From the sequence record NZ_CP092111.1: DNA of 64,000 nt; one strand, given 5' to 3'. The position numbers were made by a program, and so were the translations under genes. Below, piece by piece: positions 6,681-61,260 of the stretch (position 1 is the first letter of the stretch; each line of letters begins with the position of its first letter). Under the pieces are notes generated by a model that was not told the origin of the DNA, did not search any database, and worked only from the letters and a program-made list of their open reading frames with translations. Source of the DNA: a plasmid.

Positions 6681-7136
6681 ATGAAAAAGTTACTTACTGC
6701 TGTATGCACTCTTCTTCTAATTTCAATTGGAGCTTATGTAACTGGAAATTCGCCAATAGATTTACTATCGCATCACCAAAACACAACTGCAGCTGAAGAA
6801 AATTCAACCTCATATGATCAAAAGATCTATTTTCCTGCTGATAAGTACCCTGAAACCGCTAAACACATAAAAACGGCCATTAAAGAAGGCCATTCGAAAA
6901 TCTGTACAATTGATCGAGATGGTGCCGATGAAAACCGCGAGGAATCTTTGAAGGATGTCCCAACCAAAAAAGGGTATGATCGTGATGAATGGCCAATGGC
7001 AATGTGTCAGGAGGGCGGAGCCGGTGCCGATATTGAATACATAGAGCCATCAGATAACCGCGGGGCGGGATCCTGGGTTTCTCATCAGTTAGATGATTTT
7101 CCAGACGGAACTAGAGTATTATTTGTTGTGAAATAG
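6681..7136 (+). CDS. NucA/NucB-family secreted/membrane-anchored DNase
   Basis: N-terminal signal/anchor; [14 protein letters not shown]...[75 protein letters not shown] closely matches B. subtilis NucB/NucA core from memory. Confidence 0.8.
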
Positions 7137-15419: not shown

Positions 15420-16210
15420 AAAGAAAACGCCCCCCGTTTACGGGGCGATCGGGAAAGCACTGGCAGCGCCGCGCCATGAAATCTCTGCGGCTCATTGAAG
15501 CTGCGGGGCAGCCGGATTCCGGAGCCGGCCAGGCGCTGGCTTTTTTGTGGGCAGGGCAGGCAACGGGCTGCCCTGGCTGCAGCTGAAGGAGATCCGCGGC
15601 TGTCGGTTCCGATGTGGCGCCGGCAGGAGAGCATCTAAGGCGAGAACGCCCCGCGTTTACGAAGCGATCGGGAATGTACCGGCAGCGCCGCGCCGTGAAA
15701 TCTCCGCGGCTCATTGAAGCTGCGGGGCAACCGGATTCCGGAGCCGGCCAGGCGCTGGCTTTTTTGTGGGCAGGGCAGGCAACGGGCCGCTCTGGCTGCA
15801 GCTGAAGGAGATCCGCGGCTGTCGGTTCCGATGTGGCGCCGGCAGGAGAGCATCTAAGGCGAGAACGCCCCGCGTTTACGAAGCGATCGGGAATGTACCG
15901 GCAGCGCCGCGTCGTGAAATCTCCGCGGCTCATCAAAGCTGCGGGCAACCGGATTCGGGAACCGCCCAGGCGCCGACAGGAGAGCATCTGAAGGCGAAAA
16001 CACCCCGCGTTTACGGAGCGATCAGGGCTGCATCAGAGCGCGCCGCGCCGTAAAATCTCCGCGGCTCATTGAAGCTGCGGGGCAGCCGGATTCCGGAGCC
16101 GGCCAGGCACTGGCTTTTTTGTGGGCAGGGCAGGCAACGGGCTGCCCTGGCTGCGGCTGAAGGAGATCCGCGGCCGTCGGTCCTGATACGGCGCCGGCAG
16201 GACGGGATTA
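15420..16210. repeat. REP-like array, family 1, ~220-bp period, about 3.5 units
   Basis: The block gagaacgccccgcgtttacg recurs at 15641, 15861 and 15986; gccggcttttttgtgggcagggcaggcaacggg recurs likewise. Confidence 0.8.
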
Positions 16211-36114: not shown

Positions 36115-36850
36115 GACAGAGCCGGCTGAAAGGAACCGGCTCTTTTTTGCAGCCAGAGAGACAACGGGCCGCCCTGGCAGCTGAAGGAGATCCGCGGCCG
36201 TCGGTTCCGATGCAGCGCCGGCTTTTTTTTGTGTCCTGGCCAAGCCGGGCCGCCCTGATAGCTGAAGGAGATCCGTGGCCGTCGGTTCCGTGCGGTTCCA
36301 GAAGGAGAGCATCTGAAGGAGAAAACGCCCCGCGTTTACGGGGCGATTGGGAAAGCACCGGCAGCGCCGCGCCATGAAATCTCTGCGTCTCATCGAAGCT
36401 GCGGGGCAGCCGGATTCCGGAGCCGATCAGGCGCCGGCTTTTTTTGTGTCCTGGCCAAGCCGGGCCGCTCTGGTAGCTGAAGGAGATCCGCGGCCGTCGG
36501 TTCCGTGCGGTTCCAGAAGGAGAGCATCTGAAGGAGAAAACGCCCCGCGTTTACGGGGCGATTGGGAAAGCACCGGCAGCGCGCCGCGTCGTGAAATCTC
36601 CGCGTCTCATCGAAGCTGCGGGGCAGCCGGATTCCGGAGCCGACCAGGCGCCGGCTTTTTTTGTGTCCTGGCCAAGCCGGGCCGCCCTGGCTGCTGAAGG
36701 AGCTCCGCTCAGACCTTGCAGCTGCATCAGCACATGACGAGTTGCTTAGAGCGAAGAGAGAAAGAGCGCGCCGCGCTTACCATGGTGCTTAGGAGCCGCT
36801 GTAGCTGCAGGTGATCCAGAGCCGATAGAAAGGAACCGGCTCTTTTCACC
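36115..36850. repeat. REP-like array, family 1
   Basis: Same family-1 hairpin blocks as 4140..4420. Confidence 0.8.
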
Positions 36851-36954: not shown

Positions 36955-37170
36955 TTATTCGTAATGTTTTAAGCTTGCTTCAATAGATTTAATGTTACTG
37001 GTTAATTTTCGAATTTGTCTTCGGAGAGTATCATTAACAACAGTAGGAATATTACCTTCTTGTTTATTTATGAAGCTTTGAACAACCTCTTTTTCTTCAA
37101 CTGATTGTTTCAATTCAGACTTTAGTTCGTTTATTCTTTCTTTCATGAGTTCTTTTGTTTGTTCATCCAT
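36955..37170 (-). CDS. small coiled-coil protein (71 aa)
   Basis: ORF downstream of the nuclease gene. Confidence 0.3.
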   Translation of the reverse strand: MDEQTKELMKERINELKSELKQSVEEKEVVQSFINKQEGNIPTVVNDTLRRQIRKLTSNIKSIEASLKHYE

Positions 37171-37254
37171 TTTAAAATGCTTCTTCTGTAAATAATTGAT
37201 TTAACAATCAAACTTTTTAAAGCTACACCGCCTTTTTTGTTCATCCATTTTTGA

Positions 37255-37758
37255 TTACTCTATTGTAAATAAGACTCTAGTTCCGTCTGGGTAATCAGAA
37301 AGCTTATGTGATACCCAGGAACCTGCCCCGCGGTTATCAGAAGGGGTTATGTATTCGATGTCTGCTCCGCTTCCTCCTTCAGCGCAAAAAGCCATTGGCC
37401 ATTCATCACGATCATATCCTTTTTTTGTTGGGATATCTTTCAATGATTGAGATCGATTATTTTCCGCTCCATCACGGTCGATAGTACACACAGCTGATTT
37501 GCCCTTGGAAATTGCATTTTCTATATGTTTGGCAGTCTCAGGGTATTTATCAGCCGGAAAATAAATTACCTTGTCGGCTTTCTTATTTGAATTGTTGTTT
37601 TTGTCTGAAGAAACATCGATAGCTTTATCATGGGTGAATTCAGAAATAAGACGGTTTATATCCTTTATGATTGGACGAATAGGTGTATTTGGGACAAAGT
37701 TGCCCAAGGCATAAAGGCTAATTATAACGGCTCCTAATAACCCTAGAAATTTTTTCAT
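37255..37758 (-). CDS. NucA/NucB-family DNase, second copy
   Basis: [101 protein letters not shown]; N-terminal signal peptide. Confidence 0.8.
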
Positions 37759-37812
37759 CTTTCCCGCTCCTCATAAGGGATTTTTATAAGCATGAAAGCT
37801 GCTTTGCTAATC

Positions 37813-38058
37813 TCACTCAGGTTTCTTGTAATAAAACTTGGAGCTATCAGAGATTAAGGTGTTACTTACTCTACGGATTGTTTCCGAATTTCTTTGAAAT
37901 TTATTAAAAGGGGTATTGTCGATTTTATACTTTTTTCTCAATTCTTTAATCTTACCGGCGATTATAAAAAGGTCATCTTCCTTCAAATTTGCAATATCAC
38001 ATAATATTTCGAGATATAGTTTTTCGGTCATTTTTAATTTCACCATCCTGCTCGTCAT
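37813..38058 (-). CDS. hypothetical protein (81 aa)
   Basis: ORF. Confidence 0.3.
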   Translation of the reverse strand: MTSRMVKLKMTEKLYLEILCDIANLKEDDLFIIAGKIKELRKKYKIDNTPFNKFQRNSETIRRVSNTLISDSSKFYYKKPE

Positions 38059-38846
38059 TTTGTTTTATCAACAAAATCAAAAATGCTTTGATCAAGAGGC
38101 TTTTCCCCTTGCCCTTGAAACAGCCAATTTTTTGTTTCGCGGTTATATTCCCAACCAGCTTTTTTTAAAGCCGCGCTTAATTGCTCTAAGTTAATGCTTG
38201 GTATCTTTTTAGCAATGCTTGCTAATGTTATACCTGGTTGTCTGGTTGCGGAGAGAACTTCACGTAAGGTTGGGTTTTCACCTATATTGATTGAATTTAG
38301 TTCACTCAACTCTTTATGCCATTTCTTTATATCCGATCTGTCGAACCCTTCCTGGGTTAGAGTAGAAGGGATTTCATTAGGGGTATCCAAATAATATTGC
38401 AACTGTTTTAACGCTTCGGGTAGGGGACCGAAACTGTGTATTGTTTTGTGTCTTTGCCCTTTCCCTGGGACTGTCACGCCTTTTTTAATGTACACATAAA
38501 TTTTCCCTTGTTTTTTTAATTTGACTAAGAAGCCGCTCTTTTTAAAGTCTGTCGGAGTGGCGTTACTCTTCGAAGCATATCTATGATTTACTTTGTTTCT
38601 GTCAATTTTGTCTTTCTGTAAATAAGCTTCTAAATCAGACTTTAGGTAACGATCAGCAATAGCTTGGATTTCTCCCTTATGCACTCTGTTATAAAATGTC
38701 ACATGAGAAATGTTCATGTATGCCGCAGCCGCTTTGGGATCAAGGAGTTGCTCGGAGAGGTAATTTCTTATTTTCTGTTCTTTTTCCTTATCAGAAATGG
38801 GTTCATTTGCGATTTTTATTATCTCGTACATAGTAAACCTCCACAT
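38055..38846 (-). CDS. HTH DNA-binding protein (excisionase/MerR-like N-terminal HTH) with C-terminal domain of unknown function
   Basis: AAAYMNISHVTFYNRVHKGEIQA. Confidence 0.5.
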   Translation of the reverse strand: MWRFTMYEIIKIANEPISDKEKEQKIRNYLSEQLLDPKAAAAYMNISHVTFYNRVHKGEIQAIADRYLKSDLEAYLQKDKIDRNKVNHRYASKSNATPTDFKKSGFLVKLKKQGKIYVYIKKGVTVPGKGQRHKTIHSFGPLPEALKQLQYYLDTPNEIPSTLTQEGFDRSDIKKWHKELSELNSINIGENPTLREVLSATRQPGITLASIAKKIPSINLEQLSAALKKAGWEYNRETKNWLFQGQGEKPLDQSIFDFVDKTK

Positions 38847-38949
38847 TGTTTGGGTATTGTTTCTCTAATTTTCCGTCCTAAACCCTAATAATATCCTCTT
38901 ATTCTGAATGTTGAAAGTTCCAAAGGGAGGATGCGGGCAAGACATAAGA

Positions 38950-39000
38950 GAGAACTTTCCCTTGTGTTAAGTATAACATATGCTATAGTAATTGTATAGC
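38950..39000. promoter_or_regulatory. Variant copy (E6) of the palindromic operator: aacatatgctata-N-tatagcatatgtt, with compensatory change in both arms
   Basis: Seen in sequence. Confidence 0.5.
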
Positions 39001-39015
39001 ATATGTTATACAAAA

Positions 39016-39702
39016 TTAGTGAAGGTTCGACATTGCTTTTGAAATTTCCTTATCAGTTGCACGTATAACGGATTCAACAAACTTTTCACAATGTCTTTCG
39101 TCCGAAAAAGAACGGCTATCGAAGTTTATATTTAACGTATATGAAAACTGTTTTTGATTTACCTTGTAAATCAGAGTTGTTACACATTCATAATTACAAA
39201 TATCTTCGGTCTTATCATATTCCAGCTCCATATCATCGTACTGAGATTTAATACATTCGTCCGCAGTGTGAATCTGCCGCTCCTTTATATACTCACAAGC
39301 AATAGCTTCTATGACATGATGTATAGTCCGTTTGACAGCTGAAAGATAAAGGTCACAGTGAACGGATGGGTTTTTAACGGTTGTTATAAAAGTTGGGTGA
39401 GCATGCGTTTGAGCCGCTATTTCTGAGTGGATGATATCCTTGAATTCAGTTTCTGCTATACCTGCAACTTCATCCAATGTCAGGAAATCAAGCGTTTGAG
39501 AATGGTCACTATTGTTTAAAAACATATTCTTATTTTTTCTCACCTCGATGCTGAGTGAAGCTAACGCATAATAGCGCATCTGCTGCTGAACACGATCACC
39601 TAGACATGCCATAATTTTTTCTTTGTTTTCTTGAGTGGCAGGCAAACCATTGCTTTCTAATACTGCCGAAAGGTCTTCTGCTTTAAGTTTTGTTAATAAC
39701 AT
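39016..39702 (-). CDS. hypothetical protein; weak paralog of 40509..41174
   Basis: Shared N-terminal motif LP/IPATxENxxxI. Confidence 0.45.
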   Translation of the reverse strand: MLLTKLKAEDLSAVLESNGLPATQENKEKIMACLGDRVQQQMRYYALASLSIEVRKNKNMFLNNSDHSQTLDFLTLDEVAGIAETEFKDIIHSEIAAQTHAHPTFITTVKNPSVHCDLYLSAVKRTIHHVIEAIACEYIKERQIHTADECIKSQYDDMELEYDKTEDICNYECVTTLIYKVNQKQFSYTLNINFDSRSFSDERHCEKFVESVIRATDKEISKAMSNLH

Positions 39703-39776
39703 AAGAACAGCTCCTTATTTTCGATTATGGAGAGCATTCACGCGGGGAATGAACCACGCGTGAATGCAACTAAGCA

Positions 39777-39977
39777 TTAATCATTAATAATGGTGCCGCA
39801 AAATATATGAATTCGATTATTGGTGTGCTGGATCATTCTGACTTGGACATCCTCTTGTTTAGAGATCGAAAGGTTTTTAGCTTTCTTAAAGACGCTTGCA
39901 ATGCTAATTGGGCTTTCGATTGTTTCCTCCAATTGATCTTTTACAAACAAATTTGCTTCGAAAACTCTTGTTTTCAT
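39777..39977 (-). CDS. small hypothetical protein (66 aa)
   Basis: Immediately downstream of element copy E1. Confidence 0.35.
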   Translation of the reverse strand: MKTRVFEANLFVKDQLEETIESPISIASVFKKAKNLSISKQEDVQVRMIQHTNNRIHIFCGTIIND

Positions 39978-40082
39978 CTGAACCGCTCCTTTTCAAATTT
40001 ATTGTGTGAATGTCACCATCATCTGATGACAATTCAAGTATAACATATGCTTTACTGATATTAAAGCATATGTTAGAAATGT
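39978..40082 (-). promoter_or_regulatory. Conserved promoter/operator/5'UTR element, copy E1
   Basis: On the minus strand: palindrome taacatatgcttta-N7-taaagcatatgtta overlapping an extended -10 (TGtTATACT). Then the CATCA-N2-TGATG palindrome. Then conserved UTR attcacacaataaatttgaaaaggag. Confidence 0.6.
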
Positions 40083-40424
40083 TTATTTATCTTTTTGATA
40101 TAACGTGTAACCGCATTTGCAAAACTCAGCTATTTGTACAGGTGACAACCCGATTGTTTCGCCCTGATCGTTGACTGATGCGACAAAAAATGGGCCGTGG
40201 ATACAATGTGTCTTACCGTTTTCAGTAATTTTGCAATAGTATTGGGAATTGTAGAAGCCCTCTTCGTCGAACCAAATGTCAATGTTATTATTGAGTCTCA
40301 AACATTCGAGGTTATCGGCTCCTACAAGATTTTGCCGTTCTTCAAGGGTTTGCGGCAGTTCAACAAATCTGTTGTTCTGATGATCAAACAAAATGATTTT
40401 TTCCATAAAACTACTTCCTTTCAA
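40083..40424 (-). CDS. hypothetical protein (113 aa)
   Basis: ORF downstream of E2. Confidence 0.4.
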   Translation of the reverse strand: MKGSSFMEKIILFDHQNNRFVELPQTLEERQNLVGADNLECLRLNNNIDIWFDEEGFYNSQYYCKITENGKTHCIHGPFFVASVNDQGETIGLSPVQIAEFCKCGYTLYQKDK

Positions 40425-40508
40425 ATTTTATTGTGTGAATGTCACCATCACCTGATGATAATTTAAGTATAACATATTCTTTACCGATAGTAAAGCATAT
40501 GTTATAAA
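40425..40508 (-). promoter_or_regulatory. element copy E2
   Basis: Same architecture as E1. Confidence 0.6.
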
Positions 40509-41174
40509 TTATTTTTTGAAATTTCCATCCGGCACTCTCAGCTGACAGATAACATGGTTTACGAATTCTTGGAAAGTACCTTCGCTACTTAGATCATGAC
40601 CTTTTATGTTAGTCATAACGGCGTACCATTTTCCGCTCTTAGGGAAATAAACATTGTTAATCATATTAAAAGGATCGTCATTCTTTTCAAAGTTTTTTCC
40701 TAACATTTGAGAAGGTTTTACAAAGGATACATTACATTCTTCGTCCACATACTTATTGATCGAGTTAAAGTATCTTTTTGCAATGACTTTAATCAGGTAA
40801 CAAATAGTTTCTGCCGTTTCAAAAAAAGGGGGTTCCGTTATGGAATCGAATTGCATCTCAGAAAGAAATTCTATAGTTGCAGTGAAAGAAAAACTGCCTT
40901 TAGTTCTCTCTTCCGCTATTTCAGTGAACTCATTAAGAGTAATCAACTTCGCTCTCTTCCGATACACATCATCAGAAGTAAAAACTATTTTGTTATCCTC
41001 GATGTGATTCAGCAAAGTTTCAAAGGCATCGTGCCGAATCGTTTCTTGAATTTCTGCTGTGTCCAACTCTTGAAAGATCAATCTTATGTTTTCCTTAGTT
41101 GCCGGTATGTTGTTTCTTCGAAGAGCTTCAATAAAATCCGCTTGTGCCAGTGTGACCTGAAACGTAAAATTCAT
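40509..41174 (-). CDS. hypothetical protein (221 aa)
   Basis: ORF downstream of E3. Confidence 0.45.
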   Translation of the reverse strand: MNFTFQVTLAQADFIEALRRNNIPATKENIRLIFQELDTAEIQETIRHDAFETLLNHIEDNKIVFTSDDVYRKRAKLITLNEFTEIAEERTKGSFSFTATIEFLSEMQFDSITEPPFFETAETICYLIKVIAKRYFNSINKYVDEECNVSFVKPSQMLGKNFEKNDDPFNMINNVYFPKSGKWYAVMTNIKGHDLSSEGTFQEFVNHVICQLRVPDGNFKK

Positions 41175-41285
41175 TTTAATTCTCCTTTACAAAATTTATT
41201 GTGTGAATGCCGCCATCACCTGATGACAATTTAAGTATAACATATGCTTTATATAAGGTAAAGCATATGTTATACATTTTTTTGT
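41175..41285 (-). promoter_or_regulatory. element copy E3
   Basis: Same architecture as E1. Confidence 0.6.
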
Positions 41286-41321
41286 TTTGATAAAATCATT
41301 CCTTTTCTTTATAATGAAATT

Positions 41322-41406
41322 AATGATTTGTAAGGACTTTACCTCCTTAACAAATTTATTGTGTGAATAGGTTGCGGTGTGCGGAAACATGCCGCAACTC
41401 TTTTCT
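41322..41406 (+). ncRNA. candidate small RNA (about 85 nt). Promoter is TTGATA(41287)-17-TATAAT(41310); terminator is gttgcgg...ccgcaac + tcttttct. The body is antisense to the conserved 5'UTR/SD of the element-driven genes
   Basis: Promoter, terminator and complementarity all seen directly. Transcript segment ccuccuuaacaaauuuauugugugaau is complementary to mRNA leaders auucacacaauaaauuug(a/u)aaaggag of genes 39777-39977, 40083-40424, 40509-41174 (minus strand) and 41843-42307 (plus strand). Confidence 0.4.
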
Positions 41407-41412
41407 ATTATA

Positions 41413-41498
41413 TGCTTTACTATAATTAAAGAATATGTTAGAATTTAATTACCGTCAGTTGATGGTTTTCACACAATAAATCTTTTGGAGGGGTTAAA
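41413..41498 (+). promoter_or_regulatory. element copy E4 (degenerate palindrome tatatgctttac-N-ttaaagaatatgtta) driving gene 41499
   Basis: Seen in sequence. Confidence 0.45.
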
Positions 41499-41744
41499 TT
41501 GTTACCACATATCAGGAAAATGAGTCTTGTTCATGATTATCTTTATAATAATCGTGAAGTAGCTGAAAGATCGAATGATGGGAAGGATCAAGTGAGAGAC
41601 CGTTTTATCATTGTTACTACAGCAGAGGATCTCTTTGCTGAAGAAATACCCGCTGAAGAACATTATCTATATTCAGATTTTAATGAAGTGGTAAGTGAAC
41701 TGCGAAACACGGTAAATGATATGAAAGCTTTAAGGGAATTTTAG
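41499..41744 (+). CDS. hypothetical protein (81 aa, TTG start)
   Basis: SD ggagggg. Confidence 0.4.
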   Translation: MLPHIRKMSLVHDYLYNNREVAERSNDGKDQVRDRFIIVTTAEDLFAEEIPAEEHYLYSDFNEVVSELRNTVNDMKALREF

Positions 41745-41749
41745 AATAT

Positions 41750-41842
41750 TTTTTCTAACATATGCTTTACTATCAGTAAAGCATATGTTATACTTAAATT
41801 GTCATCAGGTGATGGTGGCATTCACACAATAAATTTGAAGGG
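41750..41842 (+). promoter_or_regulatory. element copy E5 (plus orientation) driving the second RadC-like gene
   Basis: taacatatgctttactatcagtaaagcatatgttatact...gtcatcaggtgatggtggcattcacacaataaatttgaaggg. Confidence 0.6.
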
Positions 41843-42307
41843 ATGAAGAAAATGGAGAAAGTGATTGAAGTTCTTACTCTGAAACAGGTAAAACATGAGG
41901 TTGACTGTCCAGTATCAGTCATAAGAAAGCCAGACGACGCTTTTAAGGTCTATGAATACTTTATAGCAGATGAAGCAAGAGAGGTGCCATTGGCTATCTA
42001 TCTTGACGTTAAAAACAACATTCTTGCCATATATAAAGTATCGATAGGGGATGTTCGCAGTGCTATCCTCTCTCCAAGACAAATTTATCAGGCGGCACTT
42101 TTAAATAATGCTTCGTCAGTAATCATTGGACATAATCATCCAGGCGGTGATGTTGCTCCTTCAAGGCAAGATATTGAAACCACTCAGAGGATATATGAAG
42201 CAGGAAAGCTACTAGGGATAGAACTTTTAGATCACATTATAGTGAGCATTGAAAATGGAGAAAAGAAACATCTTTCTTTGAAAGAGGCAGGATACATTAG
42301 GAATTAA
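41843..42307 (+). CDS. RadC-like JAB/MPN domain protein, second copy
   Basis: GHNHPGGDVAPSRQDIETTQRIYEAGKLLGIELLDHIIV. Confidence 0.8.
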   Translation: MKKMEKVIEVLTLKQVKHEVDCPVSVIRKPDDAFKVYEYFIADEAREVPLAIYLDVKNNILAIYKVSIGDVRSAILSPRQIYQAALLNNASSVIIGHNHPGGDVAPSRQDIETTQRIYEAGKLLGIELLDHIIVSIENGEKKHLSLKEAGYIRN

Positions 42308-42404
42308 AAGAAAAAAATTTAACCAATAGGTTCACAAAGTAAACCAAATTGTTTACTTTGTGAACTGAATGGTGTAAAATTAAGGTAAAGAAGGAGGTAG
42401 TAAT

Positions 42405-42872
42405 ATGAAAAAATCTCAACAATTTCTGAAAGGAACTTTTCCTTACTTGGGTCATCCTGATTATGATGGGAAGCCAACTAATGATACGCTCGAAACCTTT
42501 GATCAGTTGTTTTCTCATTTCCAAGACCATCACAAGAACGGCTTTGACCTCAGACGGCTGGGCAACCTGGAGCCATCGCTTATGTTACTTGCAGTGGAAG
42601 CCATTGCGATTTTCTACAAAGAGGATCTGTACAGAGAAAAGGAACCTGATACGGAATATATCAACCTTACAGATACCGCTAAGTTGCTTGGCATTTCAAA
42701 ACAAACTTTACGTAAGCGAATGGAAAAACAAAGTCCGCCAGTACCAAAACCAGATCACTATGTGAGCGGTGTACCGGCGTGGGAAAAGAAAGCTGTAGAA
42801 CAGTTCATATGGGACAACGGCCTTTATGATAATGATGGAGAATTCACTTATCCTATTCGAGAAGAAGACTAA
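42405..42872 (+). CDS. HTH DNA-binding protein (MerR/excisionase-like)
   Basis: LTDTAKLLGISKQTLRKRMEK. Confidence 0.5.
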   Translation: MKKSQQFLKGTFPYLGHPDYDGKPTNDTLETFDQLFSHFQDHHKNGFDLRRLGNLEPSLMLLAVEAIAIFYKEDLYREKEPDTEYINLTDTAKLLGISKQTLRKRMEKQSPPVPKPDHYVSGVPAWEKKAVEQFIWDNGLYDNDGEFTYPIREED

Positions 42873-42890
42873 AAAAGGAGAGAAATAATT

Positions 42891-43139
42891 ATGAAAAAAA
42901 ACCTTGCCACATTATTGGAAGAGCGGAAGCGATCACAGTCTCAGTTGGATAAAAACGAAGTGATACTAATTAAGGATGCGATAGAAGAGTTTTCTCACAG
43001 AGAAGAGTTTGAACCAGCTTTCTATTTACAGCGATTTTTGAGCTACCATGAACTATCCTCACGGTGGGGGTGGCTGCTTGTTGAGAAATTTCTTGTATAT
43101 GTGAGAAGGGAAGAAAAAAAGCTGTCTGCTTTCCGTTAA
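42891..43139 (+). CDS. hypothetical protein (82 aa)
   Basis: ORF. Confidence 0.35.
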   Translation: MKKNLATLLEERKRSQSQLDKNEVILIKDAIEEFSHREEFEPAFYLQRFLSYHELSSRWGWLLVEKFLVYVRREEKKLSAFR

Positions 43140-43143
43140 TTTA

Positions 43144-43548
43144 ATGATGCCGACACAATTGAAGGAGGATTTGACAATGAAAATGTTCGGCTATGTAAGA
43201 GGTCTGTATGATTTAGAAAGAATGGCGGAATTGTATGGGTGGCAGATCAATTCAAAGGATCATTGTAATAAGGGGTCAGACTTTGTTTATCTTTTTCATG
43301 AGGAACGGGATTTTTTGGTAGCGGTAAATACGATTAATGGTCGGTTCTTTGTTACACATCGATTAACGAAAAACCTTGTGGCTACGGATCAAAGTGTCAA
43401 ATTAAAAAGTGAAAAATGGTATGAGGATTTGCTTGAAATCCTTTATAAAGAGATTCCATGCCGTTTCTTAAATAAAAAAGAGTTCAGCCGCCAGCTGAAC
43501 CCTCTTGAAACCTTAAAAGCTTCTCACGCTAAAGAAGATTTCATGTAA
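43144..43548 (+). CDS. hypothetical protein; paralog of 44007..44309
   Basis: Shared motif GW...DxVYLF...D.xVAxNTxNGxFFV. Confidence 0.45.
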   Translation: MMPTQLKEDLTMKMFGYVRGLYDLERMAELYGWQINSKDHCNKGSDFVYLFHEERDFLVAVNTINGRFFVTHRLTKNLVATDQSVKLKSEKWYEDLLEILYKEIPCRFLNKKEFSRQLNPLETLKASHAKEDFM

Positions 43549-43590
43549 TTATAGCACAGATCCGTTTATTCCTGTATGGGAGGTGCACGA

Positions 43591-43752
43591 ATGACAGCCG
43601 CTGAAGTCGCGGTGATATTAGGAATTTTCCTGACATCTCTGCACATCTGTGAAAAGCTTCTCACGCTAGAAAAGATGTTAATAGAAAGAAAGTCACCAAA
43701 GAAAAAAAGTCCTCGGAAAGCAAGCCGCAACAGTAAGCGTAAGTTTGGATAG
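43591..43752 (+). CDS. small membrane peptide (53 aa) with basic tail
   Basis: SD gggaggtg 6 nt upstream; hydrophobic N-terminus then KSPKKKSPRKASRNSKRK. Not in the >=60-aa ORF track. Confidence 0.3.
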   Translation: MTAAEVAVILGIFLTSLHICEKLLTLEKMLIERKSPKKKSPRKASRNSKRKFG

Positions 43753-43781
43753 AGGGAGAGGGTTCGCCTCTCCCCGCCTAT

Positions 43782-43973
43782 ATGGGTTGTCAAAATGATA
43801 TGAAATTACTCAAAACTATAAAAGAGATTGTTTTCTGGCTATTCATCTTCACTTATGTCTTTGGTGTCCGCACAGCGGTTAGCGGCGGTATTCAAGAAGC
43901 TTTAGACATATTGATCATTATTTCTGTTGTTTGTTCGTTAATTGTATTTTGGATAAAAAGTAGACAAGCCTAA
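43782..43973 (+). CDS. small 2-TM membrane peptide (63 aa)
   Basis: Hydrophobic; followed by terminator. Confidence 0.35.
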   Translation: MGCQNDMKLLKTIKEIVFWLFIFTYVFGVRTAVSGGIQEALDILIIISVVCSLIVFWIKSRQA

Positions 43974-43990
43974 GCAGGCTTGTCTTGAAT
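43962..43990 (+). terminator. rho-independent terminator (agacaagcc taagc aggcttgtct)
   Basis: Perfect 9-bp stem. Confidence 0.55.
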
Positions 43991-44006
43991 TAAAGGAGCA
44001 GATAAT

Positions 44007-44309
44007 GTGAAAAAATTTGCCGGTGTAAGATCATTGGACGATATGAGAACACAAGCGATTGAAGCAGGGTGGAAATTTGATGAGAAGGCTTACCATAAGG
44101 AGAACAGTGACTATGTATTCCTTTATGGTAAAACAAAAGATGACATTATGGTTGCTATCAATACATTCAATGGCCATTTCTTTGTTTATAATAATGCAAC
44201 TGATGAAAGTATAGCTACGCATTTAAGTGAGCGATTTGATCAAGAATCTTGGTACGTTGAAATTCTGAATATTGTTAATAAGCCATATGTGAAAAAAGAG
44301 CGGCTTTAA
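44007..44309 (+). CDS. hypothetical protein; paralog of 43144..43548
   Basis: See 43144..43548. Confidence 0.45.
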   Translation: MKKFAGVRSLDDMRTQAIEAGWKFDEKAYHKENSDYVFLYGKTKDDIMVAINTFNGHFFVYNNATDESIATHLSERFDQESWYVEILNIVNKPYVKKERL

Positions 44310-44424
44310 TCACTCAGCACATACAGCAGGCGCAGCAGGTCTGCGCTCTCTTCACAAATGATACAACATTGAACATTTTTCGTTTTGAACCGGTTTAAAT
44401 TTTATCGGTGAGAGGTGTTTTGAA

Positions 44425-44700
44425 TTGCAGTATCCAGGAGATTACGTAACGATTGTAAAAAAGCCTTCTAATAGGTATGACCAAGGTCTTTTCGAGATCC
44501 GTGGTATACCCAATACCTTCTTTGAATTTTCATATCTTGGAGACAGAGGTTTTATAGAGATTAAAGAAAGCGGTACAGCGATATACTGTGTCAACCGGAA
44601 TGTTAAAGAGGGGAAACCTGTTTCATATAACTTTAGCAAGAAAAATATTGCATATCTCAGAGAGCAGATAAGATATCTGCTGGACAGACGACTATACTAA
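44425..44700 (+). CDS. hypothetical protein (91 aa)
   Basis: ORF. Confidence 0.35.
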   Translation: MQYPGDYVTIVKKPSNRYDQGLFEIRGIPNTFFEFSYLGDRGFIEIKESGTAIYCVNRNVKEGKPVSYNFSKKNIAYLREQIRYLLDRRLY

Positions 44701-44729
44701 AATATGTGGTTTATAATTGATGAATAGGA

Positions 44730-45254
44730 GTGTTAAATGTGTATGGCGGTAGCCTAAACGATATAGAAGCGAATTTAGAGCGGCTTTTAGAAGCTGAAGA
44801 GAAATCATTGTCTTGGAGCATTTCGTTTATGTGTGAGGAAGGAATAGAATTAGAATCAGTAGGAAGTGTGTATTATAGCGGGAACAGCTTTTATAATGCC
44901 GAGGATGCTTATCAATATTTAAAAGAAAAAAACCTTCTTTCAGAGTTTTCGCTTAGCCAGCAAGAAAAAATCATAGATCAGGTTAAAGCATTTGTGAATT
45001 TGCAGATTTTTGAAAACCCAAATTACTGCAGCCATTCAGGGTACAAAGCTTCTCCTGAATGTTATCGGGAAACGGAAAATAAAATAATGGTAGCTTTTAT
45101 AGATGATTCAGACCAACTCTATTTTGATGCTATTATAGACAAAATCTGTGGCAATGTGAGGTTTGAGTATCTGGGGCAATACGAGACAGAGGGAAGCCGC
45201 CCTTTTGAAAACAGATCGTTTAAGATAAGTGTAGAAAGTATTAGGGGGAAATAA
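44730..45254 (+). CDS. hypothetical protein (174 aa)
   Basis: ORF. Confidence 0.4.
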   Translation: MLNVYGGSLNDIEANLERLLEAEEKSLSWSISFMCEEGIELESVGSVYYSGNSFYNAEDAYQYLKEKNLLSEFSLSQQEKIIDQVKAFVNLQIFENPNYCSHSGYKASPECYRETENKIMVAFIDDSDQLYFDAIIDKICGNVRFEYLGQYETEGSRPFENRSFKISVESIRGK

Positions 45255-45255
45255 T

Positions 45256-45531
45256 ATGAAAAGTACAGGTGTTGTTCGCAAAGTTGACGAATTAGGGCGC
45301 GTTGTTTTACCGATTGAGATTAGAAGGATATTTGATATGAAACATAAAGATCCGATAGAAATTTTCACCGAGAATGATACGATAATTCTTAGAAAATACC
45401 AACCGCAGAAACAGTGTGCGATCACGGGCACAGTGTCAGATGAAAATATGACCTTTAGCGGAGGGATTGTTCTGAGTCCAGAAGGATGCGAGAGGTTAGT
45501 GTCTGAATTAATAGAATTAGGGCGCCGATAG
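45256..45531 (+). CDS. abrB: AbrB/Abh-family transition-state regulator paralog (swapped-hairpin N-domain)
   Basis: MKSTGVVRKVDELGRVVLPIEIRRIFDMKHKDPIEIF is nearly identical in pattern to B. subtilis AbrB N-terminus MKSTGIVRKVDELGRVVIPIELRR. Confidence 0.85.
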   Translation: MKSTGVVRKVDELGRVVLPIEIRRIFDMKHKDPIEIFTENDTIILRKYQPQKQCAITGTVSDENMTFSGGIVLSPEGCERLVSELIELGRR

Positions 45532-45582
45532 GGGTATCAAAACTCTTCTGTGTAAAGGGTTAATTAAGGAGATGCGGGTATT

Positions 45583-45771
45583 ATGACAATGGAACGTTAC
45601 TTAAAATTAAGATATAAAGGAACTACCGTGCAAGAAATTCAAAATGAATATGAATTAAGCGAAAGCACCGTTTGGACCCTTGAATTAGGTTATACTTGTT
45701 TTCTCAAAGGGATTCCGCTGGATGAAGCGATTAAAGCTATTTTTAGCATTGAGGGCCCACAAGTTCATTAA
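45583..45771 (+). CDS. small hypothetical protein (62 aa)
   Basis: ORF. Confidence 0.3.
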   Translation: MTMERYLKLRYKGTTVQEIQNEYELSESTVWTLELGYTCFLKGIPLDEAIKAIFSIEGPQVH

Positions 45772-45779
45772 TACGGCGT

Positions 45780-47440
45780 CAGCTAGCAATCTGAAGGCGA
45801 AAAACGCTTCGCGTTTACGGAGCGATCGGGAGAGTGCTGGATGCGCCTCTCCTATAAAATCTCCGCGACTCATCACAAGTTCGGGAGCAACCGGATTCCG
45901 GAGCCGGCCAGGCGCCGGCTTTTTTGTGGCCAGGTCAGGCAACGGATCGCCCTGGCTGTTGAAGGAGATACGCGGCCGCCGGTCCCGATATGGCGCCTGC
46001 AGGAGAGCATAGAAGGCGAAAACGCTTCGCGTTTACGGGGCGATCTGGTCTGCATGGGCAGCACCGCGCCATGAAATCTCTGTGTCACATCGAAGCTGCG
46101 GGGCAGCCGGATTCCGGAGCCGATCAGGCGCCGGCTTTTTTTGTGTCCTGGCCAGACGGGCCGCCCTGGTAGCTGAAGGAGCTCCGCGGCCGTCGGTTCC
46201 GATGCGGCGCCAGCAGGAGAGCGTCTGAAGGTGAAAACACACCGCGTTTACGGGGCGATCTGGTCTGCACCGGCAGCGCCGCGTCGTGAAATCTCCGCGG
46301 CTCATCGAAGCTGCGGAGGAAACCGGATTCCGGAGCCGGCCAGGTGCCGGCTTTTTTTGTGTCCAGAGCAGGAAACGGGCCGCCCTGGTAGCTGAAGGAG
46401 CTCCGCGGCCGTCGGTTCCGATGCGGCGCCAGCAGGAGAGCGTCTGAAGGTGAAAACACACCGCGTTTACGGGGCGATCTGGTCTGCACCGGCAGCGCCG
46501 CGTCGTGAAATCTCCGCGGCTCATCGAAGCTGCGGAGGAAACCGGATTCCGGAGCCGGCCAGGTGCCGGCTTTTTTTGTGTCCAGAGCAGGAAACGGGCC
46601 GCCCTGGCTGCTGAAGGAGATCCGCGGCCGTCGGTCCCGATATGGCGCCAGCAGGAGAGCATAGAAGGCGAAAACGCCCCGCGTTTACGAAGCGATCGGG
46701 AGTATACCGGCAGCGCCGCATCGTGAAATCTCCGCGGCTCATCGAAGCTGCGGGCAACCGAATTTGGGAACCGGCCAGGCGCAGGCTTTTTTGTGGCCAG
46801 GTCAGGCAACGGATCGCCCTGGCTGCTGAAGGAGATCCGCGGCCGCCGGTCCCGATATGGCGCCAGCAGGAGAGCATCTGAAGGCGAAAACGCCCCGCGT
46901 TTACGGGGCGATCGGGAGAGCATCTGCAGCGCGCCGCGCCATGAAATCTCTGCGGCTCATCGAAGCTGCGGGGGCTGCCAGATTCCGGAGCCGACCAGGC
47001 GCCGGCTTTTTGTGTTCTGGCCAGGACGGAACGCCCTGGCTGCAGCTGAAGGATATCCGCATCCGACGGCCCTAATACGGCGCCAGCAGGAGAGCGTCTG
47101 AAGGCAAAACGCCCCGCGTTTACGGGGCGATCGGGAGAGCATCTGCAGCGCGCCGCGCCATGAAATCTCTGCGGCTCATCGAAGCTGCGGGGGCTGCCAG
47201 ATTCCGGAGCCGACCAGGCGCTGGTTTTTTGTGTCCAGGGCAAGCTACGGGACGCCCTGGTTGCAGCTGAAGGATATCCGCATCCGACGGCCCTAATACG
47301 GCGCCAGCAGGAGAGCGTTGAAGGCAAAACGCCCCGCGTTTACGGGGCGATCAGGGATGCACCGGCAGCGCCGCCTCATGAAATCTCTGCGGCTCATCGA
47401 AGCTGCGGGGCATCCGGATTCCGGAACCGGCCGGTCGCCT
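45780..47440. repeat. Largest REP-like array, family 1 (about 7 units over 1.65 kb)
   Basis: Recurrent gaaaacgccccgcgtttacg, tgaaatctccgcggctcatcgaagctgcgg and gccggctttttttgtgtcc blocks. Confidence 0.85.
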
Positions 47441-48337: not shown

Positions 48338-48450
48338 ATTTCATAATGTATGCTTTTACATAAAAGCATACATTATAATTGTTGAAAACACTGATTTTTT
48401 TTCGTTAGTGTGTTATAATCTATATAATAGAAAAAAGCATACATTTTTTT
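48338..48450 (+). promoter_or_regulatory. operator/promoter: palindrome aatgtatgctttta-cat-aaaagcatacatt, extended -10 tgtgttataat, third half-site aaaaaagcatacattttttt
   Basis: Seen in sequence; half-site related to that of the six-copy element. Confidence 0.45.
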
Positions 48451-48910: not shown

Positions 48911-49453
48911 ATGAATCAGTTACAAGATGTTCAGCCAATACGCAGTTTAGAAAAAATAGAAGACATGAAGTGGGCCTTGAAGAGATTTTGTTCTGAAAGA
49001 GACTACATGTATTTTTTGATTGGGATTAACTGTGGTCTTCGTGGCGGTGATTTAGTTCAGTTGAAACAGTCTCAGTGTAGGAGAAAGAAGTTTCCTGTAA
49101 AGGAAGGGAAAACTAAGAAAAAAAGAAATATTAACCTGTCAGCAATATACGATGAAGTAGCTGCTTATATTGACAAGTATCCGAATGAGTGGATGTTCCC
49201 ATCTCAAAAGGGAGGACATATTACAAGGATTCAGGCTTACCGAATCTTACGGAAAGCTGCTGACATGGCTGGAATAGAAGGAATGGGCACTCACACCCTT
49301 AGAAAAAGCTTTGGTTATTGGCATTACAAGCAATTTAGGGATGTAGCCAAACTCCAAAGTATCTTTAATCATAATAATCCAGAAACGACATTGAGATATA
49401 TAGGAATAACAGAAGAAGAAATTGATCAGGATCTTGAAAATTTCAAATTGTGA
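48911..49453 (+). CDS. short tyrosine recombinase (catalytic domain only, 180 aa)
   Basis: R (GLRGGDL), HxxR (HTLRKSFG), catalytic Y (TTLRYIGI) all present. Confidence 0.65.
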   Translation: MNQLQDVQPIRSLEKIEDMKWALKRFCSERDYMYFLIGINCGLRGGDLVQLKQSQCRRKKFPVKEGKTKKKRNINLSAIYDEVAAYIDKYPNEWMFPSQKGGHITRIQAYRILRKAADMAGIEGMGTHTLRKSFGYWHYKQFRDVAKLQSIFNHNNPETTLRYIGITEEEIDQDLENFKL

Positions 49454-53639: not shown

Positions 53640-54890
53640 CTTGCCGTTGGTCCTGATATGGTGCCAGCAGGAAGAACTTCTGCACAGAAAGCCAAAACAC
53701 CCCCGCGTTTACGGGGGGTGATCATGAGTGAACTGGCTGTGGCTTCATCGCAGGCTGCTGAAGGAGCTCCGCGGCCGTTGGCCCTGATATAGCGTCGACA
53801 GGAGAGCGTCTGAAGCACAAAACGCCCCGCGTTTACGGAGCGATCGGGAGAGCACCGGCAGCGCCTCCGCCGTGAAATCTCCGCGGCTCATCGAAACTGC
53901 GAGGCAGCAGGATTCCGGAACCGGCCGGGTGCCGGCTTTTTGTGTCCAGGGCAGGTAACGGGGCGCCCTGGCTGCTGAAGGAGCTCCGCGGCCGTCGGTT
54001 CCGATGCGGCGCCGGCAGGAGAACGTCTGAAGGAGAAAATGCTCCGCGTTTACGCAGCGATCAGGGCTGCACCGGCAGCGCCGCGTCGTGAAATTTCCGC
54101 GCTCATCGAAGTTTCGGGGCAGCAGGATTCCGGCCGGCTAGGTGCCGGCTTTTTGTGTCCAGGCAGGCAACGGGGCGCCCTGGCTGCTGAAGGAGCTCCG
54201 CGGCCGTCGGTTCCGATGCGGCGCCGGCAGGAGAACGTCTGAAGGAGAAAATGCTCCGCGTTTACGCAGCGATCAGGGCTGCACCGGCAGCGCCTCCGCC
54301 GTGAAATCTCCGCGGCTCATCGAAACTGCGAGGCAGCAGGATTCCGGAACCGGCCGGGTGCCGGCTTTTTGTGTCCAGGGCAGGTAACGGGGCGCCCTGG
54401 CTGCTGAAGGAGCTCCGCGGCCGTCGGTTCCGATGCGGCGCCGGTAGGAGAACGTCTGAAGGAGAAAATGCTCCGCGTTTACGCAGCGATCAGGGCTGCA
54501 CCGGCAGCGCCGCGTCGTGAAATTTCCGCGCTCATCGAAGTTTCGGGGAAACAGGCTTCCGGAACCGGCCAGGTGCCGGCTTTTTGTGTCCAGGCAGGCA
54601 ACGGGGCGCCCTGGCTGCTGCGGCCGTCGGCCCGTCAGGAGAGTGTCTGATGTCAAAACGCCCCGCGTTTACGGAGCGATCGGGAGAGCACCGGCAGCGC
54701 CTCCGCCGTGAAATCTCCGCGGCTCATCGAAGTTTCGGGGAAACAGGCTTCCGGAACCGGCCAGGTGCCGGCTTTTTTGTGTCCTGGTCAGGCAACGGGC
54801 CGCCCAGGCTGCAGCTGAAGGAGCTCCGCGGCCGATCGCCTCGATACAATGCCGACAGTACTCCGGAGCCGGTGGTCGGTTAATTTTCAT
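53640..54890. repeat. REP-like array, family 1
   Basis: Same family-1 hairpin blocks as 4140..4420. Confidence 0.8.
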
Positions 54891-60539: not shown

Positions 60540-61260
60540 TTAGTAGCCAGGACGGTCCATTGCCTGCCCTGGACAAAAAAAGCCGGTGCTGGTCGGCTCC
60601 GGAATCCTGGTGCCCCGCAGCTTCGATGAGCCGCAGAGACTTCATGGCGCGGCGCTGCCGGTGCGGCCCTGATCGGCCCCGTAAACGCGGGGCGTTTTCT
60701 CCTTCAGATGCTCTCCTGCTGGCGCCGGATCGGGGCCGACGGCCGCGGAGCTCCTTCAGCAGCCAGGGTGTCCCGTTGCCTGCCCTGGACACAAAAAAGC
60801 CGGCGCCTGGCTGGTTCCGGAATCTGGTGCCCCGCAGCTTCGATGAGCCGCAGAGACTTCATGGCGCGGCGCTGCCGGTGCGGCCCTGATCGGCCCCGTA
60901 AACGCGGGGCGTTTTCTCCTTCAGATGCTCTCCTGCTGGCGCCGGATCGGGGCCGACGGCCGCGGAGCTCCTTCAGCGGTAAAGGGCGTCCCGTTGCCGG
61001 CCACAAAAAAGCCGGCGCCCGGCCGGTTCCGGAATCCGGTTGCCCGCAGCTTCGATGAGCCGCAGAGACTTCATGGCGCGGCGCTGCCCGTGTGGCCCTG
61101 ATCGCCCCGTAAACGCGGGGCGTTTTCTCCTTCAGATGTTGCCCTGCCGACGCCGATCGGACCGACGGCCGCGGATCTCCTTCAGCAGCCAGGGTGTCCC
61201 GTTGCCTGCCCTGGACACAAAAAAGCCGGCGCCTGGCCTGATCTGGAGTCTTGCTGCTCC
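60540..61260. repeat. REP-like array, family 1, opposite orientation
   Basis: Reverse complements of the family-1 blocks (cgtaaacgcggggcgttttc, ccgcagcttcgatgagccgcagagacttcatggcgcgg). Confidence 0.8.

Follow-up and report, generated by a model that had tools for sequence, protein, structure and literature searches.

The timing of establishment and anti-defence genes in conjugative plasmids of Gram-positive bacteria is understood for very few systems. The literature on the pLS20 family describes two types of regulation, namely EGeRS1 and EGeRS2 (PMC6294495, PMC8708921). EGeRS1 elements are 420-750 bp long, GC-rich (51%) and rich in inverted repeats, they contain no sigma-A promoter, they lie immediately in front of the ribosome binding site and they block read-through (PMC6294495, PMC8708921). 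The EGeRS2 of p576 (Bacillus pumilus) consists of promoters of the form TTtACt-N14-TGnTATAAT flanked by TTATCCC-NN-TTATCCC, to which the ribbon-helix-helix protein Reg576 binds as two dimers, and for this regulator transient expression after transfer has been demonstrated experimentally (PMC6294495, PMC8708921). We analysed a stretch of 64,000 nucleotides from a plasmid (sequence record NZ_CP092111.1; hereafter the window), in which a regulatory cassette of ~90 bp recurs in front of a cluster of small genes at 38.0-42.3 kb. On the basis of comparative sequence analysis we propose, at a rough probability of 0.6, that these small and probably early-acting genes are subject to a two-layer control, in which a plasmid-encoded repressor would act on operators within the promoters and an antisense small RNA (sRNA) would act on the leaders of the transcripts. 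Beside the two pLS20-family modes in the literature surveyed, the cluster would represent a third design.

The cluster is located immediately beyond a Gram-positive conjugation operon (annotated record) that encodes a conjugal transfer protein, a PrgI-family protein, a VirB4-like ATPase and a lytic transglycosylase/C40 peptidase; the presence of Gram-positive conjugation genes on the plasmid is indicated both by Pfam and by annotation. With respect to EGeRS2, the repeated elements do contain sigma-A promoters with an extended -10 (a sequence match at six repeats), and a search for TTATCCC-NN-TTATCCC gave 0 matches in the 64-kb window at up to 2 mismatches. With respect to EGeRS1, the cassette differs in being only ~90 bp long, AT-rich and itself a promoter, and neither RadC/JAB nor DUF3846 appears among the genes listed for EGeRS1 in the literature.

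The core of the system is formed by six inverted repeats of the form AACATATGCTTTA-N7-TAAAGCATATGTT, the left arms of which start at positions 38975, 40042, 40471, 41239, 41407 and 41757. An initial annotation, made from the letters alone, had described a repeated inverted repeat over an extended -10 and a conserved leader with Shine-Dalgarno (SD) sequence, and the counts bear this out: the 18-mer TAAAGCATATGTTATACT has 11 matches at up to 3 mismatches where 0.09 are expected, all of them within 38970-41794, the 13-mer arm has 16 matches (3.5 expected), and the leader box ATTCACACAATAAATTTG occurs in 6 copies (0.22 expected). In the alignment, a copy reads, in this order, as an A/T-rich flank, the palindrome, TGT and the -10 TATACT, then TAAATTG and the short palindrome GTCATCAGGTGATGG, and finally the leader box with the SD and start codon behind it, at a local GC content of 0.32-0.37. 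A consensus scan located a TG-preceded -10 promoter at all six repeats, which thereby account for 6 of the 8 TG-type matches in 8.3 kb. By sequence match the promoters read TTTACT-17-TATACT with an upstream TG and are of the sigma-A type (TTTACT-N14-TGTTATACT). The 33-bp palindrome is placed over the promoter, with its dyad 16.5 nt upstream of the first -10 base, and it covers about -45 to -12, assuming a transcript start ~7 nt after the -10. The right arm starts 20 nt after the left arm in all six copies of the window as well as in 14 copies on two related plasmids, and only the reach of the complementarity into the centre differs (13-7-13 versus 14-5-14); the variable spacer of N6-8 that had been reported does not exist, and the case for a hairpin that had been built on it is lost. 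Taken together, the view of the cluster as a coordinated regulon of near-identical promoters with a palindromic operator, conserved in related plasmids, was put forward initially and is supported.

The cassettes precede four genes on the minus strand and two on the plus strand, not five and two as first counted. The first copy heads the gene of HTH17, an HTH_17 protein of 258 aa and candidate repressor (38055..38831, minus strand). Its operator O1 (38975..39007, minus strand), AACATATGCTATA-N7-TATAGCATATGTT, is a perfect palindrome with an inner TATA variant, in which the matching changes in both arms (GCTATA/TATAGC) had been recognized correctly, and it is overlapped by promoter P1 (minus strand; -35 at 38998-38993, -10 TATACT at 38975-38970). 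The HTH17 leader of ~130 nt has neither the box nor the 5' CATCA hairpin, so that the claim of all parts being present in every copy does not hold. Three further cassettes are on the minus strand. Cassette 2 (39978..40079; operator 40042-40074, -10 40042-40037, hairpin 40030-40012, box 40011-39994, then the SD) precedes the gene of a 66-aa protein (39777-39977, minus strand) and probably also drives that of a 228-aa protein (39016-39702, minus strand); cassette 3 (40407..40508; operator 40471-40503, -10 40471-40466, hairpin 40459-40441, box 40440-40423) precedes a DUF3846 gene (40083-40406, minus strand), and cassette 4 (41175..41276; operator 41239-41271, -10 41239-41234, hairpin 41227-41209, box 41208-41191) the gene of a 221-aa protein (40509-41174, minus strand). 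On the plus strand, cassette 5 (41407..41498; operator 41407-41439, -10 TAGAAT 41439-41444, hairpin 41452-41465, box 41467-41484), the operator of which is degenerate (ATTATATGCTTTA / TAAAGAATATGTT), precedes the gene of an 81-aa protein (41499-41744, plus strand), and cassette 6 (41757..41851; operator 41757-41789, -10 TATACT 41789-41794, hairpin 41801-41819, box 41820-41837) precedes a RadC-like JAB gene (41852-42307, plus strand), which is followed by the gene of HTH155, a second HTH protein. The start of the RadC-like gene is most likely 41852, in agreement with the RefSeq annotation and in place of the 41843 given before.

A search for the motif in related plasmids had been suggested at the outset. 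The same architecture is shared by plasmids from B. amyloliquefaciens, B. subtilis (two), B. atrophaeus and the B. altitudinis/safensis group, and the cassette is thus conserved while its half-sites are plasmid-specific. The distance between dyad and -10 is constant in every lineage, with 13-nt arms spaced by 7 in the 20 copies that were scored against the consensus arm (three plasmids), and the B. atrophaeus copies fit the same 13-7-13 frame by eye. The half-site itself, however, reads AACATATGCTTTA in the window, AACATATGCTGTA in both B. subtilis plasmids (TATA or TTTA variants; ..GCTGTA), ATCACACACTTTA in B. atrophaeus and ACCTTTATGTT in B. altitudinis. Between plasmids the operator changes symmetrically in both arms, whereas within a plasmid the weak copies decay independently per arm, and the arm mismatches are mostly of the non-wobble kind (28 versus 9 wobble, in 325 arm cells). 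Independent decay and non-wobble mismatches argue for recognition by a dimeric DNA-binding protein and against a selected RNA or single-stranded DNA (ssDNA) hairpin. The RadC-HTH155 pair is shared by the yak-derived B. subtilis plasmid and that of B. atrophaeus at 91% and 98% protein identity and with nearly identical leaders: each of the two cassettes nevertheless carries the operator of its own plasmid, which implies that the operator is matched to something encoded elsewhere on the same plasmid. On these grounds we consider the palindrome to be, with good probability, the operator of a dimeric repressor.

The initial annotation had offered a repressor operator, an ssDNA-activated promoter, or both, and of these the operator is the part that stands. 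In an ssDNA-activated promoter the repeats would fold on the incoming strand into promoter hairpins (Frpo-like), which would be switched off after synthesis of the complementary strand. Each repeat can, as ssDNA, indeed form a 16-18-bp hairpin on either strand (free energy -14 to -15 kcal/mol, z -5 to -7), the cluster adjoins the transfer operon, and promoters with an extended -10 need little contact at -35. Yet the cassettes drive genes on both strands, while one strand only enters the recipient. Moreover, a stem of 16-18 bp is too short to hold a -35 and a -10 that are 17 bp apart, and no copy has a stem with such a -35. In the plus-strand copy IR6 only the first two -10 bases lie in the stem, and with most of that -10 outside it, the non-template -10 bases that are read by sigma-A would be absent on the single strand. 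The mismatches in the arms are not enriched for wobble pairs, the elements are complete and good promoters as double-stranded DNA, and the half-site specificity changes between plasmids around a fixed dyad, a pattern for which a hairpin would have no need. In the case of pLS20, the strand that is transferred has been described as the non-template strand of the genes oriented against the conjugation operon (PMC8708921); if that orientation applies here, the entering strand would be the non-template strand for 4 of the 6 genes. A stem that rebuilds a duplex -35 and -10 in a single orientation, as expected of an Frpo-type element, was thus not found, and we regard this alternative as highly improbable. 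Two other classes of element were looked for as well. The Cheo/LexA box GAAC-N4-GTTC has no match at up to 1 mismatch in 38900-42400, as had been anticipated, and the combination typical of MerR-type activators, i.e. a dyad inside an over-long spacer of 19-20 bp and a winged helix-turn-helix protein with a coiled-coil dimer, is not what is seen here. A palindrome of related appearance is present outside the cluster: AATGTATGCTTTT-ACAT-AAAAGCATACATT at 48345-48374, followed by ATAAT, has a half-site resembling that of the cassette operator and a spacer of 4 nt, and a third half-copy (AAAAGCATACATT) is found 60 nt downstream (48433-48446). These elements are located upstream of a small tyrosine-recombinase-like open reading frame (ORF; 48911-49453) and are also present in the sister plasmid.

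Three DNA-binding proteins accompany the cassettes in all plasmids, i.e. HTH17, HTH155 and an AbrB paralog, and all three had been named as potential binders. HTH17 is the best candidate, with odds that lie slightly on its side. It is made up of an N-terminal MerR/excisionase-like winged helix-turn-helix (PF12728), a conserved middle beta-alpha domain and a C-terminal domain of 78 aa. No other gene combines, as that of HTH17 does in every case, a perfect operator with the lack of a leader box (window, sister, both B. subtilis plasmids and B. atrophaeus; n=5), and compared with the cargo consensus the HTH17 auto-operator shows the same symmetric inner change, TTTA to TATA, in the window, the sister and B. 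atrophaeus. Relatives of HTH17 have 62%, 53% and 34% identity to the window protein, and the predicted recognition helix of HTH17 differs as well (HVTFYNR, RTTFYSK, RPTFNIK). It is the perfect auto-operator without a box, combined with a recognition helix that differs where the operator differs, that makes this protein the favoured one. Searches for structural relatives were of little help: a PDB sequence search with the HTH17 profile gave nothing significant, and neither did Foldseek with the whole HTH17 model, apart from weak PC4/Pur-alpha-like matches to the middle domain (E 0.5-1.2) that we do not rely on. Residues 181-258 of HTH17 (38055-38294) correspond to a separate ORF of 96 aa that comes after the HTH gene on the plasmids of B. 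subtilis and B. atrophaeus, and the C-terminal 78 residues are also found as a free-standing small protein on other Bacillales plasmids; the separate state in relatives indicates that HTH17 of the window is a gene fusion.

The operators could be real and the binder another protein than HTH17, namely HTH155 (42405), the AbrB paralog (45256), an unrecognised small protein or a host factor. Homologs of HTH155 and AbrB are present on every cassette-bearing plasmid, the B. altitudinis-type HTH17 gene is without a visible auto-operator, and the binding of the operators by HTH17 is a prediction only. However, HTH155 is 98% identical between plasmids with entirely different operators, and it is a palindrome and promoter of its own with which it covaries. 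In the window this palindrome, GTTCACAAAGTAAAC-N6-GTTTACTTTGTGAAC (42330-42365), is perfect and overlaps TTTACT-17-TAAAAT, and in the B. subtilis and B. atrophaeus plasmids it reads TTCAAAAAGTGAACT-N4-AGTTCACTTTTTGAA with TTCACT-17-TAAAAT, identical between both (region upstream of HTH155: 42330-42380 in the window, ~6935-6975 in locus L002 and ~4310-4350, minus strand, in locus L008). Judged from these sequences it is probably the HTH155 auto-operator, heading a separate operon (42405-45771) that ends with the AbrB paralog. The DNA-binding N-terminus of that paralog is nearly invariant across operator types, and both proteins are therefore unlikely cassette binders. A host factor cannot account for half-sites that are plasmid-specific inside the B. 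subtilis group, and the region is without a LexA box. Altogether we hold a binder other than HTH17 to be unlikely.

The second palindrome of the cassette, CATCA..TGATG, does exist as first described, and its behaviour in the comparison is that of a 5'-terminal RNA hairpin and not that of a second operator. Among 17 distinct versions that were aligned, a 6-bp helix that begins at the predicted +1 has 95% of its cells paired; 4 of the 6 pairs change on both sides, the exceptions are 12 G.U pairs against 5 other non-pairs, and the pairing signal is abolished when the partner columns are shifted. The covariation that had been proposed as a check on the aligned copies is thus present in this hairpin. 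The hairpin has a free energy of -7 to -9 kcal/mol in most of 28 cassettes, and some lineages have another helix in its place, e.g. UCACU/AGUGA or UCACC/GGUGA. In B. subtilis a paired 5' end protects mRNA from 5'-end-dependent decay, and by analogy the hairpin probably serves as a stabiliser of the cargo mRNAs.

The second layer of control would be encoded by the sixth copy of the leader box (41351-41368, minus sense). It has no start codon behind its SD and no ORF, and in the direction of the box the palindrome at 41407 has no conserved -10 (by reading), so that an mRNA from that side is unlikely. What had been counted as a seventh promoter is accordingly a copy without a usable promoter in box sense, and appears instead as the template of an antisense sRNA on the plus strand, which escaped the initial annotation although it lies within the region described. 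Its promoter, TTGATA-17-TATAAT (41287..41315, plus strand; 11 of 12 matches), ranks first among the sigma-A matches over 8.3 kb of sequence, and it is found 55 nt (87 nt by another count) upstream of the top-ranked intrinsic terminator (GGTTGCGGTGTGCGGAAACATGCCGCAACT then CTTTTCT; stem 41370-41399), for which there is no upstream plus-strand gene that would require it. The predicted sRNA is ~85 nt long (~41322..41408, plus strand; ends predicted) and includes CCUCCUUAACAAAUUUAUUGUGUGAAU, the exact complement of SD and leader box (anti-box 41343-41370). In its predicted fold (-29.2 kcal/mol, z -5.7), a stem-loop at the 5' end (SL1) includes the anti-SD CCUCCUU, the seed UAUUGUGUG is left single-stranded, and the terminator follows. 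When the cassettes are aligned, the sRNA terminator sits where the 5' hairpin of the mRNAs lies, which suggests that the sRNA gene was derived from an inverted copy of the cassette.

Promoter and terminator are kept in all of the seven distinct relatives that were compared, an eighth locus (L003, the sister plasmid) being nearly identical to the window. The promoters read TTGAAA-17-TATAAT in the two B. subtilis plasmids, TTGATA-17-TATAAT in B. atrophaeus and TTGTAA- or TTGAAA-17-TATATT in the B. altitudinis type, and the spacing between promoter and terminator is roughly 60-95 nt across lineages. In every case the sRNA gene lies to one and the same side of a cassette gene and runs in the direction of that gene, which is the homolog of the 81-aa protein in four lineages (window and sister, both B. 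subtilis plasmids, B. atrophaeus). In the alignment of five versions of the 12-bp terminator stem, 6 pairs are doubly compensated and 0 broken; several pairs are G.U, which would be C.A on the opposite strand, and such strand-specific pairs indicate that the helix is selected on the strand of the sRNA. SL1 cannot be aligned between lineages, and yet each version folds into the same succession of SL1, seed and terminator (z -4.3 to -5.8). The predicted sRNA holds no conserved ORF (by reading of homologs), and an ORF in box sense is found in no lineage. We therefore think it likely, on this comparative evidence, that the sRNA is made. Known RNA families gave no further clue: Rfam 15 has no match at the gathering score in the whole window, and a relaxed search (E up to 1) of 38800-42400 returned only a below-threshold microRNA model (E 0.59) on the O1 palindrome. 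The literature that we searched, the coverage of which is incomplete so that an earlier description is possible, described no sRNA in this plasmid context.

These same patterns bear on another account of the cluster, in which the cassette is a passive, portable strong promoter and leader that was spread by duplication and recombination, the palindrome is an insulator or terminator that separates back-to-back units, the ORF-less copy has decayed, and the promoter and terminator on its opposite strand are fortuitous. It would fit that the copies on any one plasmid hardly differ from each other, as recent duplication or gene conversion would leave them, that cargo genes have been shuffled between plasmids, and that the repeat at 41235-41275 scores terminator-like on the plus strand. 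Chance would nevertheless have to explain why the opposite-strand promoter, the spacing and the terminator recur in all lineages with compensatory changes and strand-specific G.U pairs, why the structure of SL1 is retained while its sequence diverges and why the box-sense ORF is missing everywhere; and an HTH17 gene that keeps the operator and never has the box is hard to explain without separate regulators at the DNA and the RNA level. We consider such a passive origin quite unlikely.

That the sRNA acts on the cargo mRNAs is suggested by the joint variation of seed and box: AAAUUUAUUGUGUGAA goes with AATAAATTT in the window, AAAUGUAUUGUGUGAA with AATACATTT in B. subtilis, AAAUGUAGUGUGAA with CTACATTT in B. 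atrophaeus and GGGAAUGUGUGUGAA with CACACACATTC in B. altitudinis. When the core of the sRNA was compared with 634 candidate starts in the window, the five cargo genes were the five best targets at -26 to -31 kcal/mol (median -8.8 kcal/mol, best unrelated start -21.4), HTH17 was not among these five, and the duplexes predicted for the best targets include the SD. This core ranking replaced ViennaRNA duplexfold runs with the full-length sRNA against whole leaders, the results of which were loop-rich and hard to interpret. The conservation of the leader would follow from its pairing with the antisense sRNA, and we lean, somewhat beyond even odds, to the view that the sRNA represses translation of the cargo genes. 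The sign of this effect is something we infer, and the sRNA might exist and yet not repress translation: its effect could be to activate or stabilise the mRNAs of the cargo, or the box could mainly be a protein-binding or ribosome-enhancer site for which the sRNA is a competitor or decoy. In keeping with this the box is single-stranded in the predicted leaders, and CA-rich leaders can enhance translation. However, the anti-SD of the sRNA (CCUCCUU in the window; CUCC or UCCC in the relatives) is contiguous with the anti-box, so that the ribosome binding site would be hidden upon pairing, an arrangement classically linked to inhibition, and a non-repressing role seems very unlikely to us.

The preferred two-layer scheme would then operate as follows. 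A dimeric plasmid-encoded repressor, most likely HTH17, would bind the palindromes and block RNA polymerase, and in established cells it would hold the six promoters shut, including its own through the variant perfect operator. The promoter of the sRNA lies ~15 bp outside the nearest operator and is for that reason probably unrepressed. As the five cargo mRNAs share the leader AUUCACACAAUAAAUUUG next to the SD, the sRNA could pair there and block ribosome binding, and would thereby, in established cells, remove leaky cargo transcripts, while the pulse that follows entry would be given a threshold or be sharpened. Upon entry into a new cell, and after synthesis of the complementary strand, the promoters would fire together (zygotic induction), cargo mRNA would outnumber the sRNA, and proteins would be made until repressor and sRNA catch up. 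Because the repressor mRNA has no box, the RNA layer could not prevent repression from being re-established. Any gene that comes to lie behind a copy of the cassette would gain both controls, which fits the observed exchange of cargo among plasmids. A copy of the cassette that is inverted and has no ORF would thus have become the gene of a trans-acting sRNA that silences all cargo of an establishment or anti-defence island and spares the repressor; whether this, in combination with a swappable repressor/operator pair, amounts to a two-key and plasmid-specific immunity is in our estimation an even question.

Several observations weigh against this interpretation. The number of independent lineages is only about 5, all from the B. 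subtilis and B. pumilus groups, and gene conversion among the cassette copies, including the one that forms the sRNA gene, could keep box and seed matched without selection for pairing. A constitutive inhibitory sRNA could also blunt the very pulse that it is thought to shape. In the B. altitudinis type a good palindrome is present in only 1 of 3 cassettes and the HTH17 gene has no recognisable operator. HTH17 of B. subtilis is equally close in identity to that of the window (62%) and to that of B. atrophaeus (61%), whereas the operators differ strongly only in the latter comparison, and the HTH17 structure model is of moderate quality (predicted local distance difference test score 68.8, predicted template-modelling score 0.37, 5-sequence alignment). 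Transcription starts, sRNA ends and repressor binding are all predictions, and the functions of the cargo, as well as the role in establishment, are deduced from position and gene families. With these points weighed, our verdict from the sequence comparison is that the cluster represents a real and conserved two-component design, i.e. a repressor-controlled establishment regulon with an added antisense-RNA layer, the latter being unreported in the literature searched.

The cassette family is rare, and all carriers so far are plasmids from the B. subtilis and B. pumilus groups. The window has 99.9% identity to the 67.3-kb circular plasmid of Bacillus velezensis SRCM124633 (NZ_CP116015.1), of which it covers nearly the full length, and 98.8% to the sister plasmid of B. 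amyloliquefaciens Fad 108. At the blastn level the cassette was recovered from only 3 records among 72,556 plasmids, namely the two sister plasmids and NZ_CP114900.1, the 54.5-kb B. subtilis plasmid from yak, with matches of 87.6% identity in 6 places. Further carriers were reached via homologs of HTH17: contigs of B. subtilis SC09 and B. atrophaeus, and ~30-37-kb plasmids of B. altitudinis, B. safensis and Bacillus sp. JNUCC-24, with 2 more relatives of the same type. An exact-pattern scan for the palindrome over one genome per species (GTDB) gave 3 single matches in unrelated phyla, which we take to be chance; two metagenome scans gave 0 matches for the palindrome and 7 isolated ones, all outside a cassette context, for the hairpin-plus-box pattern, and a scan of viral contigs gave 0 matches. 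A 65-kb B. subtilis plasmid that was considered as a stand-in for pLS20 was rejected, as it turned out to be an unrelated plasmid of the Tcp/Flp type. Within the family the cassette appears to be the unit by which cargo is gained and lost. At 8011-8982 of L003 the sister plasmid has one additional cassette and, with it, two additional cargo genes (80 and 193 aa), a stretch that is placed between the 81-aa gene and RadC; two tandem DUF3846 genes with one cassette each are present in the B. subtilis plasmids, and the orientation and order of the cargo differ in B. subtilis.

The cargo itself (DUF3846, RadC/JAB and proteins without assigned function) likely consists of establishment or anti-defence genes, and the shared cassette flags the 66-, 81-, 221- and 228-aa proteins together with DUF3846 and RadC/JAB as candidate early-acting plasmid functions. 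The 221-aa and 228-aa proteins are distant paralogs (23% identity, E 1e-8), and homolog searches with the 81-aa protein returned near-identical sequences only. Between the 66-aa and 228-aa genes, at ~39728-39762, there is an 11-bp GC-rich stem-loop (GCATTCACGCG...CGCGTGAATGC) without a T tract, which could be an RNA processing or stability element inside the operon; it is missing at the equivalent junction of the B. atrophaeus plasmid. Downstream of HTH17 on the minus strand (36955-38058) are an 81-aa ORF, a NucA/NucB-type DNase (37255-37758) with a signal-peptide-like N-terminus and a 71-aa ORF, genes that probably belong to the autoregulated operon of HTH17. A NucA/NucB gene is also found near the cassette cluster in the B. 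subtilis plasmid (directly after the HTH17 gene) and in plasmids of the B. altitudinis type. Elsewhere on the plasmid, which otherwise has 35% GC, there are five GC-rich (~0.64) tandem-repeat arrays with a unit of ~217-219 bp and 2.3-7.6 copies each, one of them inverted (15426-16108, 36215-36708, 45789-47439, 53753-54620 and 60560-61238). Two of these arrays flank the region studied here; blastn matches were obtained in the two sister plasmids only, and the arrays may be the counterpart of EGeRS1 in the pLS20-family plasmids.

If the sRNA layer is real, a mobile element has placed many unrelated and often exchanged cargo genes under a single post-transcriptional switch. The design lends itself easily to experiment, as it involves a short operator, one candidate repressor and one RNA of 85 nt with a defined seed, for which the sister plasmids supply natural specificity variants. 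In terms of known systems, the cassette shares most with the EGeRS2 of p576: in both, small establishment operons (putative ones in the window) beside the conjugation operon are preceded by a number of strong sigma-A promoters that share one shape, and both have, or are expected to have, a self-controlling plasmid repressor and transient expression after transfer. The EGeRS2 operator is, however, a direct dual heptamer, whereas that of the cassette is a 33-bp palindrome with a MerR/Xis-like helix-turn-helix protein as its candidate repressor, and for p576 neither an antisense RNA nor a shared leader box has been described, while the regulon studied here has the box and, as predicted, the sRNA. 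With EGeRS1 the cassette has in common that regulatory sequences are repeated upstream of establishment operons on Bacillus conjugative plasmids. The Frpo elements of F and ColIb-P9 resemble it in that inverted repeats precede early plasmid genes with transient expression after entry (predicted in the case of the cassette), but they form a long imperfect hairpin that rebuilds both -35 and -10 and occur in one orientation, in contrast to the 16-18-bp stems, the two orientations and the complete double-stranded promoters of the cassette.

Limiting an initial burst by means of a helix-turn-helix dimer that binds an inverted repeat over a strong promoter of anti-defence genes, as proposed for the cassette, is also the principle of the Aca autorepressors of anti-CRISPR operons and of the ArdK/KorA-type repressors in the leading regions of IncN, IncW and IncP plasmids. 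These belong to a different protein family and use a different operator, and the cassette adds many separate promoters and an RNA layer; the Aca type has also been discussed in PMC8708921. The RNA layer is most like the plasmid antisense RNAs of the FinP-traJ type, which cover a ribosome binding site. RNAs of this type are short, structured and constitutive plasmid RNAs with a terminator that pair with a 5' leader and its SD and block translation. FinP is encoded in cis, opposite a single target, whereas the sRNA of the cassette comes from an ORF-less inverted copy and would act in trans on at least 5 mRNAs. Finally, the exchange of specificity between plasmids recalls the immunity regions of lambdoid phages, in which repressor and operator specificity are swapped as a unit while the architecture stays fixed; in the plasmids considered here such specificity spans 6-7 dispersed operators plus one sRNA and its 5-6 leaders.

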